Source: Escherichia virus TH54. From it: DNA of 64,000 bases. Under the pieces are notes generated by a model. The model ran no database searches. It was not told where the DNA came from and worked only from the letters and a program-made list of their open reading frames with translations. The first letter of the stretch is position 1. Each line of letters starts with the position of its first letter. The stretch lies in the sequence record MT446420.1, one strand, 5' to 3'. The position numbers and the translations under genes were made by a program. Of this stretch, positions 3,744 through 36,602 are shown piece by piece.

Positions 3744-4213
3744 TTTAAACTCTTTCTAAGCTGCTTCTTAAATGAAGCCATTAATTGTGTTTTGGTGTCA
3801 GATTCATTATAAGTCATACCATTCAAAAGCATTTCCCGAATCATTTCTTCTTTCCCCAGACGACCGAACTCTTTGGCTTTGTCTGTTACAAAATTGGGGT
3901 GAATATTGTTTTCGGTATAATCAGATTTCAGATAGACAAGCAAACTCTCTAACCATTCCAGGTAGTCAACATCGCGACTTTTTAGACCCGAACGGCTGAA
4001 CTTATGCTTCATTTGTCCTTCTGTTCCATTGCACAGATTGCATAGTAACCCGCGAACCTTACCGGCTTTTGGTCCGTTCAATTCGTGGTCATGGTCAAGA
4101 TGGTTGGCCTGAACATCGGAGTCCAAATCACGGTGACAAATTGGACACTTACCAGCTTGTGCATCATAAAGTTTTTGTTTTTCTTCTTTGTATAATTTGC
4201 CAGTCAACAACAT
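3740..4213 (-). CDS. 49: endonuclease VII (Holliday junction resolvase)
   Basis: 157 aa, near-identical to remembered T4 gp49 (MLLTGKLYKEEKQKLYDAQ...). Confidence 0.95.
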   Translation of the reverse strand: MLLTGKLYKEEKQKLYDAQAGKCPICHRDLDSDVQANHLDHDHELNGPKAGKVRGLLCNLCNGTEGQMKHKFSRSGLKSRDVDYLEWLESLLVYLKSDYTENNIHPNFVTDKAKEFGRLGKEEMIREMLLNGMTYNESDTKTQLMASFKKQLRKSLK

Positions 4214-6040: not shown

Positions 6041-6304
6041 TCATTTAAAATATTCTCGCAGTTGGTCGAAGCCACCAATATGACTTCCGTCAGGGGCAAA
6101 TACTTGCGGCATGGTCAAACCAATTTGGGATTCGCGACCAAGCGCAACCAGGAGTTGAGCAATCTTCTCATCATCAAACACACCTTTTTCTGGCATAACG
6201 TTGATGAACTCGTAAGGTTGTTTTTTAACATCCAAAAAACGTTTTGCATTATCGCAGAATACACAGCGATGAATAGATGAATCATAACCATATACTTTAA
6301 ACAT
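6041..6304 (-). CDS. nrdC: thioredoxin/glutaredoxin
   Basis: 87 aa, near-identical to remembered T4 NrdC (MFKVYGYDS...CVYCDNAK...). Confidence 0.95.
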   Translation of the reverse strand: MFKVYGYDSSIHRCVFCDNAKRFLDVKKQPYEFINVMPEKGVFDDEKIAQLLVALGRESQIGLTMPQVFAPDGSHIGGFDQLREYFK

Positions 6305-6305
6305 A

Positions 6306-6563
6306 TTATTCCTTAATTCCTAATACTTGTTTGAAGGTCTCAGTATAATCGGGGTATTGACCGGTTTGTTCTTTATGTTTGACCATAATACCATAAACTT
6401 CTGAACGCATATTATTATATGAACGAGTTAAAGCAGATTTCAATACTGAATAACTATCCGGAAGTTTACCGTGTTCTTTATAATAGGCCAGAGTTAATTC
6501 ACGGACCGCCTTATCAGCAGTCTCAAGATATTCTTTACGCTTTGCCATTTTCGTCTCGCTCAA
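6306..6563 (-). CDS. hypothetical protein, 85 aa
   Basis: ORF track. Confidence 0.55.
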
Positions 6564-6828
6564 ATTTGTGTTTACAATGTCTGCATTTGTAACGAAGAGT
6601 ACTAGTCTGCCAATGGACTAACTGTACCTGTTCAGTTCCACATTCTGGACAGTTAGGAACACGCTTAGAAGCACGTTCACGACGACGAACCATAGCCATT
6701 ACTGTATCCCAATCAGGAACCTGACTATAATCATCAGTCCAGTTTATAAGACCTTTATCAAACCCCGCTGCGGGGGTCCATTCTGGAAATGCAGTTTCTG
6801 CAATATCTTCAGCTAAACGTTGTTTCAT
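6535..6828 (-). CDS. hypothetical Cys4 zinc-ribbon protein
   Basis: CPEC...CRHC motif. Confidence 0.55.
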
Positions 6829-7817
6829 TTCAGCAGCTCCAGAGCTTGTTCCAGTTTATCCAGACGATTGGTTGATTCTTCCCAAAGTCGTTTGGCTTTT
6901 GTATAATCTTCAGTTGCCTTTTTATTAATAGCAAGAGCTTCATTATACGCCGTTTCCAGGGCAACAATTTCAGGCGCTTTTTGTTTCACTGGCTCATTAT
7001 TCAGATTATCAATCAGGTCTTCAAGGGTAGTAACTTCATGCGGAGCGTTCATAATTTCCTCACTTTTCTTTTTATAAATTTCTGCATCAGTTGGTTGTTT
7101 TGCACATTTAACTTCACGCAATGTCACCACAATTTTCCAACCTTTCCAACCATGAGCACTGGTGATAGGGTCTACTTTAATTTTTTCAACAGTGCGCATA
7201 TAATTAAGGGCACACTGTACCTGATGAGTAAGCGTACAGGCAACATCAAGATACTTTTTGACATTTTCTGGAGTAGCCACCGGCGTAAAGAACTCATGCT
7301 TAACTGTAATAATTACTTGGTTTTCACCAGACTCTTTAACCTTTATCATATGCTCAGCCAAATGGGAGATAGTGCGAAAATCACCACCCATCAATTTTGT
7401 CGCTGATTTTATGATAGACATTTTGTTATCTCTGAATTCACGAGCCCAGCAATTTGCGAATTCAGAAACAGTATAGCCTTGCTTATCAAGGTAGTATTTT
7501 TCAACATCACCAAACCAATGATATCCAATTGTACCTTTACCACGTCTGGATTCAACACCAAACTTATTAAGAAGGTCTTTATTAACCAGGTATGCCAGAA
7601 CTCGGGAACCTTTAAAAGTTTTCTTGATATCATCATTACCAGCACGACTCGCAATAGTCGCAATGTCTTTCTTGAAGCGACCAGATGCAACAATCGTCGA
7701 ATCAATCTGATTTAACCAGAAATTGATAATTGAAAGGATAGCCGATTCACCTATTAATGGTTTTACTTTTGCATCGATAGTGGTGTTAAAGGCCTGGATA
7801 TATTCGTTACGCGTCAT
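6825..7817 (-). CDS. hypothetical protein, 330 aa, C-terminal coiled coil
   Basis: ORF track; shares C-terminal tail with 7876..8781 and 9000..9845. Confidence 0.7.
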   Translation of the reverse strand: MTRNEYIQAFNTTIDAKVKPLIGESAILSIINFWLNQIDSTIVASGRFKKDIATIASRAGNDDIKKTFKGSRVLAYLVNKDLLNKFGVESRRGKGTIGYHWFGDVEKYYLDKQGYTVSEFANCWAREFRDNKMSIIKSATKLMGGDFRTISHLAEHMIKVKESGENQVIITVKHEFFTPVATPENVKKYLDVACTLTHQVQCALNYMRTVEKIKVDPITSAHGWKGWKIVVTLREVKCAKQPTDAEIYKKKSEEIMNAPHEVTTLEDLIDNLNNEPVKQKAPEIVALETAYNEALAINKKATEDYTKAKRLWEESTNRLDKLEQALELLK

Positions 7818-7875
7818 AGTGTTCTCCTCATAAAGTAGGAATTCATTATACTCCCTCCATCCTTGGAAGTAAACA

Positions 7876-8781
7876 TTATTTTAATGCTTTGATTGCCGCT
7901 TGCAATTTATCGCGTTGCGTTTCCATATTCTTGATGCGATTCAGAACATCCTGAATACCCTTTTTCTCATCTTCAATCAGACCGTTTAAGCGGTTGACTG
8001 ATTCCTGGATAGCATCAGCATGATAGCTCTCAATAGGCTTCATGGTTGGGTTAAAGATTTCAAGAGAGCTGGATGGCTGGATTTTCCATTTGTACATATT
8101 TTTAACGTCCGGTGGTGAAATTTTGGCCTGGTCGTAAGATTTAAACTGGCCTGCAAATGCTGGGCCATATGAGACAGATGATGCGGTAGGGATACGTTCC
8201 ATTTCTGGTTCCTTTTTTTCTTCTGGTTCATTTTTCTCCTGATAAGGAGCATAAGATAAAAGATATTCTTTAGTTAATTTAATATCAATGGCTATAGTTT
8301 TGAGGAATTTTTCAGTCTGATGAATATAATTGGTATCTTCATCAAATGTATATCCTTCAACGGCATGCCGCATATAAAACAGTGCAATACCCATAACCTC
8401 TTTAAAGGTATCACAAAGAGCAACATCACCCTTGGTGGTTGGCTTGAACTTAATCTGCACACCATCGTTCTTGATATTAATAATCAAGTTACTGGAGTTA
8501 AAATTATAGTTCTTGATGTTAACAGGAGCCTTGCGAATACGAAGCCCGGCAGCCAGGATTTCCTTAATGCTCTTACGAACTGTGGCACCAAACAAAAACG
8601 CAGGGCGGCGGCAGTAATCATTCAGAGAGTTAATTCTTACAATACGTTGCCCATACCCCTGGGTGGCAGAACCAGATTTGATTTTGCCAAAGTTAACCAG
8701 AGAATTCATCGCAATAAGACGGGTTGCACGTCCTTCACGCTGTTCAAATCGAGAATATTCTTTACGTGTTTTAATTTTCAT
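7876..8781 (-). CDS. hypothetical protein, about 301 aa, C-terminal coiled coil (start uncertain, alternatives at 8805/8817)
   Basis: ORF track 7876..8817. Confidence 0.65.
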   Translation of the reverse strand: MKIKTRKEYSRFEQREGRATRLIAMNSLVNFGKIKSGSATQGYGQRIVRINSLNDYCRRPAFLFGATVRKSIKEILAAGLRIRKAPVNIKNYNFNSSNLIINIKNDGVQIKFKPTTKGDVALCDTFKEVMGIALFYMRHAVEGYTFDEDTNYIHQTEKFLKTIAIDIKLTKEYLLSYAPYQEKNEPEEKKEPEMERIPTASSVSYGPAFAGQFKSYDQAKISPPDVKNMYKWKIQPSSSLEIFNPTMKPIESYHADAIQESVNRLNGLIEDEKKGIQDVLNRIKNMETQRDKLQAAIKALK

Positions 8782-8782
8782 A

Positions 8783-8998
8783 TCATAACCCAAATAATTT
8801 TTCATAGAGTTTAGCAAAAGGCCAGGTCACACACATTATAACAGCGACTACCCAGAATATAGGCCAGCAAAATGTTGTAAACACCGCATCATACTCGTCC
8901 CCACTTTCGTAGGGACTATCAAACTTGTGAAGCAACAGGGTAGTAACAAATCCCGTTGCAAGATAACCAAAAATAATACTGATAATCAAAATGGTCAT
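8783..8998 (-). CDS. small membrane protein, 71 aa
   Basis: two hydrophobic helices. Confidence 0.55.
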   Translation of the reverse strand: MTILIISIIFGYLATGFVTTLLLHKFDSPYESGDEYDAVFTTFCWPIFWVVAVIMCVTWPFAKLYEKLFGL

Positions 8999-8999
8999 A

Positions 9000-9845
9000 T
9001 TAAGCCTTAAGCAATTTAATAACGTCCATCAGTTTCTGACGTTCAGCTTTCGCTGCACTGTTCAAGCCTGTCAGGCGGAAAATTTCATCATCTTGCTGCT
9101 GGATGGTGATGTTAAGCTCTTCAATCTGTTTAGTGAAAAGCTCAATTTGCTCTGAATATTTTTCATTGCTTCGCACTGGAACAGGTTCCATTTTAGGAGC
9201 TTGTTCTGAAGAGTCTTCAGTCAAGTCTTTAATTTTATAAAGTTTAATACGCTGACCTGCTCCAGTTTCAGCATCACCAAAACTAAGAACGCCGTGTTGT
9301 TCTAATTCAGACAGGGCCAAGCGCAAATGGAACTTCCAGTTGTCATATTGACAACCACTAAAAGTTGAAATGGTATACTCATTTTCATTTCCGGGGTGGT
9401 TAACAATATTAAAGATAATCCAATCACCTGAACCGTTAGTCTTAAATGTCATTTGTTTATCAAGACCTTTTGCAAGACGAGCACCAAGGGCCAGTAGACG
9501 ACGTTGATTAGTATTAAGGTCTTTAACAACTTCGCCAAATGACATCGCCGGGATTAAACGACCATAAAGGTCGTAGCCTTTGTTATAATTTTTAAGAATA
9601 ATTTTGGCATTAGCACGAGACAACATACCTGTTTTACGAAGAGTTTTCATGACTCGGTCTTCTAAGGTAAACGAACCTTTAGTCTTGTCAAAGATTTTAG
9701 TGAAGTCATCTTTAACAGTACAAACATTGAACTTGTCCCACATCATATATAGGACCTTTTCAACCACTTCTTTAGTGCTCGGAATACGCCCGAATTTAAC
9801 AACTTTTTTAACTTCAGAACGAATTTCATTAATTGCTTGCGACAT
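9000..9845 (-). CDS. hypothetical protein, 281 aa, C-terminal coiled coil
   Basis: ORF track. Confidence 0.7.
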   Translation of the reverse strand: MSQAINEIRSEVKKVVKFGRIPSTKEVVEKVLYMMWDKFNVCTVKDDFTKIFDKTKGSFTLEDRVMKTLRKTGMLSRANAKIILKNYNKGYDLYGRLIPAMSFGEVVKDLNTNQRRLLALGARLAKGLDKQMTFKTNGSGDWIIFNIVNHPGNENEYTISTFSGCQYDNWKFHLRLALSELEQHGVLSFGDAETGAGQRIKLYKIKDLTEDSSEQAPKMEPVPVRSNEKYSEQIELFTKQIEELNITIQQQDDEIFRLTGLNSAAKAERQKLMDVIKLLKA

Positions 9846-9908
9846 AATAATTTCCTCAATAGATTAATCAAAGGTCAGAACCATTATACCATCCTTGGTA
9901 TAAAGCGT

Positions 9909-10433
9909 TTATGCGAGAACCGTCTTTAAACGCTCTTCAAACTTCTGAAGGAGTGCCTGGCGCTCTGCTCTTTGTTTGGTATAGGTTTCAATACGCTCTG
10001 AAGTGAGATTGTATTGTTCATTAACTGATTCCCGCATGAATTCAGGAATCTCTTTACATGCTTTGATTTCATTGAACTTATCAAGCACCGCTTGTTGTTC
10101 AGCAATCAGACCATCATAATATTGGATATCTGATTTGATGTTTTGTACATCAGATTCAGTAGGCATATTTTTCTTTGCTCTTGATGCCTGATACTCAGCA
10201 TTAGTCTCTCTTGACCAGAACAAAGAGCGGTTTTTATTGGTGTTTTTATACACATCAACAATACCAACTGAATCAACAGTCACAATCCAGTTCCAGGCGT
10301 TTTTATAAGTTTGACCACCTGATACTGTAATCTCACCAGCACAAGCAACATCATTAAAGAACTTGCTTTGTGCTTCTGATTTAAAATTACCATTATTGTA
10401 ATTAATCAGATTAAAGATTGATTTGGCTTCCAT
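9909..10433 (-). CDS. hypothetical protein, 174 aa
   Basis: ORF track; preceded by conserved leader cassette. Confidence 0.65.
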   Translation of the reverse strand: MEAKSIFNLINYNNGNFKSEAQSKFFNDVACAGEITVSGGQTYKNAWNWIVTVDSVGIVDVYKNTNKNRSLFWSRETNAEYQASRAKKNMPTESDVQNIKSDIQYYDGLIAEQQAVLDKFNEIKACKEIPEFMRESVNEQYNLTSERIETYTKQRAERQALLQKFEERLKTVLA

Positions 10434-10501: not shown

Positions 10502-10804
10502 TTAATTAAAAGTTCTTTCAGTATTTTCACCGCTGAACCAGACGCTCTTAACGGCTTGCTGGGCGCGATGGAGCTGCTCTGCCATATAAACACCAAGGGC
10601 CTCAGCTTTACGTGTCCTGTGAGCTTCTGCGGCGACCATTTGCAGCTTATCCATCATGATAAGAGCTTTGCATTTCTCCTTCAGAGCATATCGCTTCTTC
10701 TCTTCTGGAGTTTTGACCATTCCTCTTAACTTGTGCATTTTCAACTTAAAATGGTCAGCAGATTTCAGACATGCATCAATCATGTCAATTTCATACTTTT
10801 TCAT
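10502..10804 (-). CDS. hypothetical protein, 100 aa
   Basis: ORF track. Confidence 0.55.
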   Translation of the reverse strand: MKKYEIDMIDACLKSADHFKLKMHKLRGMVKTPEEKKRYALKEKCKALIMMDKLQMVAAEAHRTRKAEALGVYMAEQLHRAQQAVKSVWFSGENTERTFN

Positions 10805-11134: not shown

Positions 11135-11881
11135 ATGATTTTATCCGGAAGAACTGTTGATGAACTCAATGAAAAAGTCCAGGCTGCCTTGGCTAATAAT
11201 TGGTATTTGTTTGGTTCGACTATGGTGTTGCCGAATACCCCTACGGATAGCAAAGAGCGTTTTTTCCAAACTATGTCCAGCTCGGAAACTCAGATACCGG
11301 GTCCACCTGGTCCCAAAGGAGAACCGGGTGTACCAGGACCAAAAGGAGACCCAGGTGGGGATGGAAAATCTTCTTATCAGATATGGCTTGACTTGGGAAA
11401 TACAGGAACTGTTGATGATTTTTTAACTGATACAGCAGGAAAGAGGGAAAAATCCGAGGTGTTTTGGAGTGGTATAAACGTTCTATTAACCAATGGTGTG
11501 ACTTCAAACATAATTAGTGTTTTAAAGGGGATTCCACCGACTGCAGGGACTCTATCTCCGTTTTTTAGAACCACTGATGATAAGTTGTGGCCATATAACC
11601 AAGACAGAAGCCTAATGTTTAAACTCAACCTTATTGGTAATTTTGCAGGAGCCTCGCAAGCTCGAAGTATAACATTAAATTTCGTTGGAACCAACGGAAA
11701 CACTTATATACAGAATCGTCCGGAAAATGCTACAGATATTTTGTCTTTTACAACGTTCTTTAGCATTGATAAAGATGGGGCAATGGCAACCAATGGTACA
11801 GCTATAACTGTTATGCCAAATGGCGGCAACTTTACAATAACCTCTGCATTGTTAGTAGCCGAACAAACAGTGACTTCATAA
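11135..11881 (+). CDS. collagen-like repeat protein (Gly-X-Y x8) with beta-rich C-terminal domain; opposite strand to flanking genes
   Basis: GPPGPKGEPGVPGPKGDPGGDG repeat; AGGAG RBS; terminator hairpin downstream. Confidence 0.7.
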   Translation: MILSGRTVDELNEKVQAALANNWYLFGSTMVLPNTPTDSKERFFQTMSSSETQIPGPPGPKGEPGVPGPKGDPGGDGKSSYQIWLDLGNTGTVDDFLTDTAGKREKSEVFWSGINVLLTNGVTSNIISVLKGIPPTAGTLSPFFRTTDDKLWPYNQDRSLMFKLNLIGNFAGASQARSITLNFVGTNGNTYIQNRPENATDILSFTTFFSIDKDGAMATNGTAITVMPNGGNFTITSALLVAEQTVTS

Positions 11882-11905: not shown

Positions 11906-12146
11906 AGATTGCACTCCAAAAATTATGGAATCTTATAGTATTGATAGCCCAGTTAACAAACCTGCGAGTTTGCTTGGGAGTTGGTTTGCATATGTACTTG
12001 ATATTGACCCGACGACCAGTTTCACGACAGACTGCTTCGAGATACCAGCGGCGACCTTTATGAGGTCTTCCATACGATAAGAAGACCTTGATTTCCTGGT
12101 TATCGATAATAGGAATTGTGGTTGTCAAGATATACCTCCTCAACAA
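11904..12146 (-). CDS. hypothetical basic protein, 80 aa (may be spurious)
   Basis: ORF track. Confidence 0.3.
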   Translation of the reverse strand: MLRRYILTTTIPIIDNQEIKVFLSYGRPHKGRRWYLEAVCRETGRRVNIKYICKPTPKQTRRFVNWAINTIRFHNFWSAI

Positions 12147-13110
12147 ACTTGTCCCAGAACTTCATGTCCACCTTCGCAGGCATACCATTCTTAGCAGCCC
12201 AGATGGCATTAGTTTCGACTTCATCAACGATAGCTTCAAGTTCAGCCTGTACATCTTTAAAAGCATGTAACCCTTGTTTGATTTCAAGGATAAACGGTGC
12301 TGTTCGTAAAGGATATTGAAGGTCACCGGTCATATAAATTTCCTTCAGCTGATATCCAGCTCGATAAGCATGACTCAATGCTTTCCAGTCAATACCTTCA
12401 TTCGCTTCGGCCTTACGAGCACGTTCACCATATTCGGCATCAAGTTTATTCAGAGATTGCTTGAGCTCGATTAAAGACAGAGTAGTTTGGTATTTACGAC
12501 CGAGGACAGTATAGAACGTTTGAGGACCTGTTTTCTCATGGTTATGAAATACCCATTCACAGAACTCGTTTTCAGGGAGCCGGTGCTTAATATCTTCTAC
12601 CTTAGTACGTCGTTGCTTAGTAGAACCATCTTCTTGATAATCGACCCATTGTTCAGGAATCTGGTTAACGATTTCCAATACACCACGCAGTGCAGCCAAT
12701 CGAGAACCTTTAACACCATATTTGGAAGCTTGCTTGCGGACATACCCCAAATAGGCTTTCATGTTGGTTGTATAGAACCGCGAACGGTTATCCTGAATAA
12801 ACTTCCATACATCTGGTAAATCGGATTTGACAACCAGGTCAGCCGGCGTGTGAATCATGTCCAGAGCAACGGTTTCGCCTTCGGCCGCCAGTTTAAAGAA
12901 ATATTTCAGACTATAAAGTTCATGGTCAACATCATCTTTTGTATTTTTGGTAGCCGTGTTATTCGTGTTCAGGTTGGTATGGTTCATCGCCGTCCCAAGT
13001 AGAATATCACGAGGATGTGGAACAAAGATTTCTTTAAAATCGACATCAGATTCTGGGGTACTTGTTCCATAAAGGTGGCTACCGAAGTAGCCTTTCATAA
13101 TAGTTTTCAT
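12100..13110 (-). CDS. Pol-beta superfamily nucleotidyltransferase-like protein, about 336 aa
   Basis: GSHLYGTSTPESDVDF (GS-x10-DxD) motif near N-terminus. Confidence 0.7.
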   Translation of the reverse strand: MKTIMKGYFGSHLYGTSTPESDVDFKEIFVPHPRDILLGTAMNHTNLNTNNTATKNTKDDVDHELYSLKYFFKLAAEGETVALDMIHTPADLVVKSDLPDVWKFIQDNRSRFYTTNMKAYLGYVRKQASKYGVKGSRLAALRGVLEIVNQIPEQWVDYQEDGSTKQRRTKVEDIKHRLPENEFCEWVFHNHEKTGPQTFYTVLGRKYQTTLSLIELKQSLNKLDAEYGERARKAEANEGIDWKALSHAYRAGYQLKEIYMTGDLQYPLRTAPFILEIKQGLHAFKDVQAELEAIVDEVETNAIWAAKNGMPAKVDMKFWDKFVEEVYLDNHNSYYR

Positions 13111-16593: not shown

Positions 16594-17166
16594 TCAGCTT
16601 GTCAATTCGAGCCAATGTTTCCTGCATAAAGATACGTACGATTCATTCCCACCGACCAATACTTGCTCGCCGTCCTTTACAGCAGCACCGTCGATTACTC
16701 GAGCGGTCATGGTTGCTTTCCGGCCGCAATGGCAGACGCCCTTTAATTCAACCAGTTTATCCGAAATAGCCAGAAGTCTGGCTGAACCGGGAAATAACTG
16801 ACCCCGAAAATCTGTTCTTAGCCCGTAACACATAACGGGGATATTGTAATTATCAACCACTCGTGCTAACTGGTCAATTTGCTCTGGCAACAAAAATTGA
16901 GCTTCATCGACCAGGACACAATGGATGTCCTTTTGAGACTCGGCCCATTTATAGAATTCAAACAGGTTCATGTCGGCCGTTACCAGGTTTGCTTCCTGGC
17001 TAATACCAATACGTGATTTAATTTCAGATTCCGAGTCCCGATTATCAATAACAGGCTTTAGCAAAAGCACACTCATTCCACGCTCTTTATAGGAATAAGC
17101 GGCAGTCAGCAATGAAGCTGTTTTGCCTGCATTCATTGCTGCGTAATGATAAATTAAACTCGCCAT
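16594..17166 (-). CDS. tk: thymidine kinase
   Basis: Walker A NAGKTASLL; Cys cluster; size as T4 Tk. Confidence 0.95.
   Translation of the reverse strand: MASLIYHYAAMNAGKTASLLTAAYSYKERGMSVLLLKPVIDNRDSESEIKSRIGISQEANLVTADMNLFEFYKWAESQKDIHCVLVDEAQFLLPEQIDQLARVVDNYNIPVMCYGLRTDFRGQLFPGSARLLAISDKLVELKGVCHCGRKATMTARVIDGAAVKDGEQVLVGGNESYVSLCRKHWLELTS

Positions 17167-19441: not shown

Positions 19442-20021
<580 letters not shown>

Positions 20022-20025
<4 letters not shown>

Positions 20026-35913: not shown

Positions 35914-36601
<688 letters not shown>

Positions 36602-36602
<1 letters not shown>

Follow-up and report, generated by a model that had tools for sequence, protein, structure and literature searches.

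Tandem, highly diverged paralogues in the nrdC region of a Gaprivervirus and their possible role as early host antagonists

The nrdC.4 to nrdC.6 block of Escherichia virus TH54

We analyzed three adjacent genes, here termed A, B and C, in a 64,000-nt window of Escherichia virus TH54 (MT446420.1). The window is the whole stretch of DNA analyzed, and all coordinates are window positions (Table 1). Over about 5 kb around the block, identity to Gaprivervirus genomes (EAWsc9, vB_YenM_P8 and SP18 among others) is 92-96%, and the phage is a Gaprivervirus (an SP18/JS98-like T-even phage). Gene order was derived from the SP18 and T4 annotations and from tblastn searches with T4 proteins. An earlier note on this DNA had reported three large proteins of 330, about 301 and 281 residues in the nrdC-tk region, with a small membrane-protein gene between two of them. 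We find these lengths (301 for the second protein) and the quoted C-terminal ends in three minus-strand open reading frames (ORFs), the block does lie between nrdC and tk, and the membrane-protein gene, encoding 71 residues, is located between C and B. A, B and C have the same predicted three-part layout, in which a head of ~200 residues is followed by a disordered linker of 20-75 residues and by a C-terminal heptad helix of ~50 residues that carries a conserved motif. As judged from the sequence comparisons outlined below, both heads and tails descend from a common ancestor, and the block arose by tandem expansion.

A matches phrog_1435 over residues 1-330 (expectation value (E) 6.4e-144) and T4 NrdC.4 at 49% identity (E 1e-115), and the family PF26897 is precomputed on all 46 homologues of A. 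We assign A as the orthologue of T4 NrdC.4. The A head also matches T4 NrdC.3 (E 4e-6), which closes with a tail ending like that of A and is a paralogue of NrdC.4. For B, an alternative upstream TTG start would yield 313 residues. B covers profile positions 9-307 of 307 in Pfam DUF7235 (PF23882), at E 7.6e-114 and 380.7 bits (cut-off 30). BLASTP aligns it to T4 NrdC.5 over 314 residues with 27% identity (E 4e-23), head and tail also match when taken apart (E 2.6e-15 and 3.8e-11, respectively), and T4-type NrdC.5 was retrieved by a B profile at E 1.5e-20 in a search of representative sequences. B is assigned by these matches as a divergent full-length NrdC.5 homologue and a new member of that family; the B-type family itself is narrow, with 6 representatives found by the B profile search among 1.84 billion proteins. 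C matches phrog_2257 (E 6.5e-125) and T4 NrdC.6 (50% identity, E 1e-53), PF26899 is precomputed on its homologues, and we assign it as the NrdC.6 orthologue.

The membrane-protein gene matches phrog_7899 (E 8.5e-29), and its hydropathy profile contains two hydrophobic segments. We considered the 71-residue protein as a relative of T4 NrdC.7 and rejected this, as the two lack similarity; nor is it a member of the A/B/C family. T4-type loci have no counterpart of this gene between nrdC.6 and nrdC.5. The C stop and the membrane-gene start are joined as TAA-T-ATG, and the membrane-gene stop and the B start as TGA-T-ATG. These 1-nt gaps join C, the membrane gene and B into one tightly, translationally coupled unit.

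Numerous GenBank and UniProt records name homologues of NrdC.4, NrdC.5 and NrdC.6 'thioredoxin'. Neither sequences nor models support this name: no Pfam thioredoxin match was found for A, B or C, and the models of B and C are composed of a helical bundle and hairpins, unlike the thioredoxin fold with its CxxC active site in thioredoxins and glutaredoxins. The name seems to derive from the nrdC.x gene designations, and we flag hundreds of such annotations as errors.

Relationship of the tails and of the heads

The final 49-54 residues of A, B and C each follow a single unbroken heptad register (seven heptads). In these tails, 75-86% of the a and d positions are hydrophobic, compared with 21-26% elsewhere (shuffle p <= 0.003), and AlphaFold2 (AF2) predicts single helices for the tails of B and C, in agreement with the coiled coil that the earlier note had placed before each C-terminus. 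Counted from the C-terminus, the register is identical in A, B, C, T4 NrdC.3 and T4 NrdC.5. The tails end in a common motif of 13-16 residues, R/K-x-x-K/R-L-x-x-A-[LIV]-x-x-L-K.

Comparisons of the A, B and C tails by pairwise BLASTP were non-significant, and direct hhalign comparisons reached only P 0.02-0.04. We scored the tails in a gapless, anchored test with the C-terminus fixed, with position-specific scores derived from the C-terminal 16 residues of each family (NrdC.3, NrdC.4, T4-type NrdC.5, window-type NrdC.5 and NrdC.6) and no position search. All cross-family pairs ranked in the top 1e-3 to <5e-5 of 22,022 background 16-mers taken from the window ORFs, and each pair exceeded 336-338 of the 338 background C-termini. 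In a heptad-phase control, the last 14 residues scored 20.5 +/- 3.4 over 18 ordered family pairs, compared with about 1 +/- 7 for the same helices shifted by 7, 14, 21 or 28 residues, and the terminal position was best in 18/18 pairs. A regular expression for the motif, run on 998 ORFs from 18 related loci, matched these families exclusively, and the motif is also terminal in T4 NrdC.3 and in gp092 of phage PM2, neither of which was used to define it. The helix parts upstream of the motif are mostly dissimilar between families. Together with the anchored similarity, this indicates that the shared part is the terminal motif, presented on a family-specific coiled-coil-like helix. The tail similarity is thus confirmed to be beyond chance but short: the earlier proposal that the tails are alike is borne out by the anchored motif and the heptad-phase control, but not by BLASTP or direct profile comparison.

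We next considered the heads. Pairwise BLASTP of A, B and C returned no significant match, and direct hhalign comparison of shallow single-family alignments gave only P 0.02-0.1. Links emerged after T4 NrdC.3 and NrdC.5, and then intermediates from other genera, had been added. The sample was drawn from PM2, Acj61 and 26 further viral contigs; the ORFs of their nrdC regions were clustered, and family profiles were compared by hhalign. The viral-contig scans had returned 3 loci with a single-protein query and 14 and 26 with alignment-based queries. At full length, the NrdC.6 family is linked to the PM2 gp092 type (P 2e-8), the NrdC.3/4 family to the protein L036_7212_8186 (P 2.3e-8), the NrdC.5 family to the gp092 type (P 2.2e-6), the gp092 type to L036_7212_8186 (P 2.3e-6), and the NrdC.3/4 family to the NrdC.5 family (P 7.7e-5). 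All of these links are collinear and run from near the N-terminus to the last residue.

The links persist when the last 75 residues are cut off. With heads only, NrdC.3/4 matches L036_7212_8186 at P 4.6e-9, NrdC.6 matches the gp092 type at P 1.6e-6, and the gp092 type matches L036_7212_8186 at P 2.7e-5 and NrdC.3/4 at P 3.2e-4; NrdC.3/4 and NrdC.5, the families of A and B, are linked directly at P 1.6e-5. In 63 head-only comparisons with seven unrelated neighbouring families, which served as negative controls, the lowest P was 0.014. Iterated searches with hidden Markov models, seeded with B or with C, ended in one and the same set of five proteins. The N-terminal heads had been described as looking unrelated; this does not hold, because without the tails A is linked to B directly and C to A through the two intermediates. 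As the heads are linked collinearly in the absence of the tails, A, B and C are full-length diverged paralogues rather than different effectors on one handle. What remains of the earlier picture of a variable domain on a common coiled-coil handle is that the heads vary more than the tails; the heads themselves are homologous, not grafted effectors.

All families contain a core helix with the motif F/L-x-x-N-x-R/K-x-I/L-L-x-x-G-x-R-L/I, which forms the most invariant block within each family. Family-invariant residues are F128, I135, K141 and G145 in A, and R69, I72, K73, R81 and I82 in B. In C, invariant columns extend from N113 to G127, and the helix is aligned to LRVNWKMFLALGARCQFG of PM2 gp092.

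In the AF2 model of C (predicted local distance difference test score (pLDDT) 79), a helical bundle (residues 1-126) is followed by a hairpin (145-161), a helix (170-183), a second hairpin (188-203), a disordered segment (204-226) and the tail helix (227-280). The B model has the same order of hairpin, helix, hairpin, linker and long helix, although it is poor (pLDDT 57), and its linker before the tail, ~75 residues long, is of low confidence. In the predicted head layout, the beta-hairpin / helix / beta-hairpin module comes after a helical bundle. A Foldseek search with the C model against predicted viral structures returned uncharacterised proteins of 300-370 residues from other T4-like phages, matching over the full length with E 1e-9 to 1e-3 and 12-17% identity. 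Among them are entries that fit PM2 gp092 and Acj61p121 by genome and protein length; a further match, from Yersinia fHe-Yen9-01 (313 residues), is a protein not present in the genome stretch examined. No match to a solved structure or known fold was found.

We also evaluated D, the nrdC.8 product (67% identical to T4 NrdC.8), as a family member and rejected it, with hhalign P 0.15-0.24 against the three families at full length. The D C-terminus is again a heptad-like helix and has AERQ in common with the C tail, but one residue out of register; the D tail alone reached P 0.009 at best against C, the strongest of the negative controls.

Copy number, divergence and genetic setting

The sequence comparisons define a predicted Straboviridae-specific family, which in T4 would comprise NrdC.3, NrdC.4, NrdC.5 and NrdC.6. 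Distant Straboviridae carry one copy, Acj61 two, Gaprivervirus-like phages three, and T4-type phages four, with nrdC.3 added. In Gaprivervirus-like phages the order is fixed as nrdC.6, nrdC.5, nrdC.4, and order and adjacency are kept across genera. Within families, heads are less conserved (identity 0.53-0.69) than tails (0.72-0.76); in the A family, identity rises from 0.53 in the head to 0.76 in the tail and 0.87 in the last 16 residues. The ratio of nonsynonymous to synonymous substitution rates (dN/dS) is 0.29-0.35 in heads, 0.23-0.53 in linkers and 0.10-0.14 in tails, compared with 0.08-0.10 for nrdC, nrdC.11 and gp49. The rate of change in heads is thus about threefold that of tails and core genes.

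The gp092 type is a mosaic: its head is closest to C (P 1.6e-6, compared with 0.022 for B), and its tail is closest to B (5e-9, compared with 6e-5 for C). Either tails may have been exchanged between paralogues, or the parts of a single-copy ancestor may have been unequally retained. Some Tequatrovirus genomes, for example those of Escherichia phages FL18, SF and ST2, harbour a second, very divergent nrdC.6 allele class with ~33% identity over residues 60-280, which points to allele replacement within Tequatrovirus. Individual members are also found broken. In the SP18 reference (L001 4874-5778), two ORFs take the place of an intact B homologue, NrdC.4 is split in one contig (L017 9971-11003), and NrdC.6 of the T4 reference (L006 8067-8894) has a different ending that lacks the LK motif, which is retained in other Tequatrovirus copies.

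A and the C / membrane gene / B unit are preceded by separate promoter-like sites, and a promoter-like sequence is found upstream of D as well. At the site upstream of A, a G before TTTACT gives GTTTAC, which we take to be a T4 early-type -35 element. The site upstream of C presumably resembles a MotA-dependent middle promoter of T4. The spacers of these two sites contain the 10-mer CCAAGGATGG (7857-7866 and 9889-9898, minus strand), which is not statistically remarkable, as 22/100 shuffles equal the window count at one mismatch.

Every gene of the block lies on the minus strand, with one exception (11135-11881, plus strand). This gene encodes a 248-residue protein with a collagen-like Gly-X-Y run (GPPGPKGEPGVPGPKGDPGG), and its counterpart in phage EAWsc9 is named 'tail-NK domain-containing protein'. 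It roughly occupies the slot of T4 nrdC.10, of which tblastn with T4 proteins found no homologue in the window. The C-terminus of NrdC.2 contains a zinc-ribbon signature with several weak Pfam zinc-ribbon matches (e.g. PaaD-type, E 2.6e-5).

Table 1. Features of the block and its surroundings, in window positions
Feature	Position	Strand	Description
gp49	3749-4213		
nrdC	6044-6304		
nrdC.1	6306-6563		
nrdC.2	6535-6828	-	97 residues; start overlaps stop of A
A, T4 nrdC.4 orthologue	6825-7817	-	330 residues; head, short linker, C-terminal heptad helix
A tail	6828-6974	-	residues 282-330, heptad helix
A core helix	7380-7436	-	residues 128-146, FRDNKMSIIKSATKLMGGD; aligned by hhalign to VRKSIKEILAAGLRIRKAP of B
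Promoter-like site upstream of A	7845-7873	-	TTTACT, 17 nt, TATAAT; consensus match only
B, divergent T4 nrdC.5 homologue	7876-8781	-	301 residues from ATG
B tail	7879-8034	-	residues 250-301, heptad helix ending QRDKLQAAIKALK; AF2 helix 250-300
B core helix	8524-8580	-	residues 68-86, VRKSIKEILAAGLRIRKAP; hhalign alignment
Small membrane-protein gene	8783-8998	-	71 residues, two hydrophobic segments; between C and B
C, T4 nrdC.6 orthologue	9000-9845	-	281 residues
C tail	9003-9167	-	residues 227-281, heptad helix ending ERQKLMDVIKLLKA; AF2 helix 227-280
C core helix	9459-9518	-	residues 110-129, LNTNQRRLLALGARLAKGLD; most invariant block of the family
Promoter-like site upstream of C	9883-9907	-	CGCTTTA, 12 nt, TATAAT; putative
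D, T4 nrdC.8 orthologue	9909-10433	-	174 residues
nrdC.9	10502-10804		
nrdC.11	12103-13110		
tk	16600-17166		

Possible functions and comparison with known systems

The functional evidence for the family consists of the published work on T4 NrdC.5 and Dsr1. In that study, T4 that has lost the early gene nrdC.5 is sensitive to Dsr1, a sirtuin defence from E. coli ECOR17 (PMC9391042), and plasmid-expressed T4 nrdC.5 alone restores infection by the deletion mutant (PMC9391042, Srikant et al. 2022). The only characterised member is hence an anti-Dsr1 counter-defence protein. As the T4 counterpart of one copy switches off an immune protein, the other copies are reasonable anti-immunity candidates. 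We consider the chances slightly better than even that the three proteins, as strongly diverged tandem paralogues, act as diversified early antagonists with an oligomerising or docking tail. The family would provide a set of antagonists of host defences or host factors, in which the variable head may recognise the target, and the conserved tail may either render the protein oligomeric, giving avidity, or dock on a common partner. On this view, the probable targets of B are Dsr1-like systems, and those of A and C would be different ones.

Several findings weigh against this proposal. B is only 27% identical to T4 NrdC.5, and its AF2 model is of low confidence, with pLDDT below 50 for residues 175-254. 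Direct hhalign comparison of B and C gives no link (P 0.12-0.17), and the direct link between A and C is marginal (P 0.005-0.01), so that the A-C connection rests on the gp092 type and L036_7212_8186 as intermediates. The head dN/dS of ~0.3 is smaller than 1; relaxed constraint would account for it no less than diversifying selection, and dS, the synonymous rate, is near saturation in some pairs. Finally, individual members are broken in some phages and can therefore be dispensed with in the laboratory or in some natural settings.

Other explanations can be weighed against the same data. Unrelated effector domains may have been shuffled onto one coiled-coil handle. Such a scenario would fit the non-significant BLASTP comparisons of the heads, the placement of A, B and C in separate Pfam and PHROGs families, and the gp092 mosaic, which could reflect exchange of tails between paralogues. 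However, the tail-less profile links are collinear and far beyond the negative controls, the families have the core helix motif and the hairpin / helix / hairpin module in common, and the mosaic is equally explained if C best kept the ancestor's head and B its tail; we regard shuffling as very improbable. It is hardly credible that the tails resemble each other by chance or by convergence of generic amphipathic helices, with neither common origin nor common role. The P of 0.02-0.04 in direct tail comparisons and similar 16-mers elsewhere in the window (e.g. at 19747-20025 and 36369-36602) would be in line with this notion, yet all pairs reach a P of about 1e-4 in the anchored tests, helices placed in the same heptad register away from the terminus score ~20 points lower, and the tails of B and C are connected through the gp092 type (P 5e-9 and 6e-5). 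Homology extends to the heads, which makes descent of the entire protein from one ancestor the simpler explanation.

A different possibility is that A, B and C, perhaps together with the membrane protein, bind each other through their similar tails and make up a single hetero-oligomer with one function. The fixed and adjacent gene order across genera, the identical heptad register and terminal motif, and the translational coupling of C, the membrane gene and B all speak for it. The distant relatives are single-copy, however, so that the ancestral state must have been homomeric or monomeric, and members decay singly (B in SP18, the tail end of nrdC.6 in T4, nrdC.4 in one contig). In addition, plasmid-borne T4 nrdC.5 alone rescues the deletion mutant, although the available text does not state which neighbours were retained there (PMC9391042). 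We judge a hetero-oligomer improbable. Still less probable, in our opinion, is that these are nucleic-acid-binding proteins or accessory factors of replication or transcription instead of defence antagonists. One GenBank record names an A homologue 'replication protein', and to us the helix followed by a beta-hairpin resembles the wing of a winged helix; yet the same records contain the 'thioredoxin' names, which were evidently propagated in error, and such labels therefore have little weight.

A more specific form of the antagonist proposal, which we regard as rather doubtful, is that the fast-evolving head of each paralogue disables a different immune protein, Dsr1 being the first, and that the tail motif reflects a common mechanism. 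The proteins may be obligate oligomers, or they may all dock on one partner from the host or the phage. If this were true, the study of A (NrdC.4) and C (NrdC.6) would lead to new defence systems or modes of inhibition. In the literature searched, we found no functional data for nrdC.3, nrdC.4 or nrdC.6, and NrdC.5 is not listed in an anti-defence catalogue preprint. We likewise found no description there of NrdC.3, NrdC.4, NrdC.5 and NrdC.6 as one family, the genes themselves being known T4-type ORFs. With this grouping, three or four 'hypothetical proteins' in each T-even genome become concrete candidates for counter-defence screening.

We compared the family to known systems. DSAD1 of phage SPbeta is reported to block the SIR2-type NADase defence DSR2 by binding (PMC10973363, PMC10981675). 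The analogy to T4 NrdC.5 is one of role only, and the target is DSR2 rather than Dsr1. With T4 NrdC.5 itself, B shares the slot between nrdC.6 and nrdC.4, the strand and the tail motif. It differs in an N-terminus that is ~40 residues shorter, in ending with LK instead of LN, and in being preceded by the small membrane-protein gene. T4 nrdC.3 has no copy in TH54. In the databases, NrdC.4 (PF26897, phrog_1435) and NrdC.6 (PF26899, phrog_2257) are kept separate; here NrdC.3, NrdC.4 and NrdC.6 are united with NrdC.5 in one proposed superfamily.

Relatives in other Straboviridae comprise the single-copy proteins PM2 gp092 (from a Pectobacterium phage), L036_7212_8186 and the 337-338-residue proteins of loci L039-L042, as well as p120 and p121 of Acinetobacter phage Acj61. 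They resemble A, B and C in size, in their position near nrdC, in the head-linker-helix layout and in the same or a similar terminal motif, such as EQYDKLFAALSALK in PM2. They differ in occurring as one or two copies per genome rather than three or four, and they represent sequence intermediates that combine a C-like head with a B-like tail.

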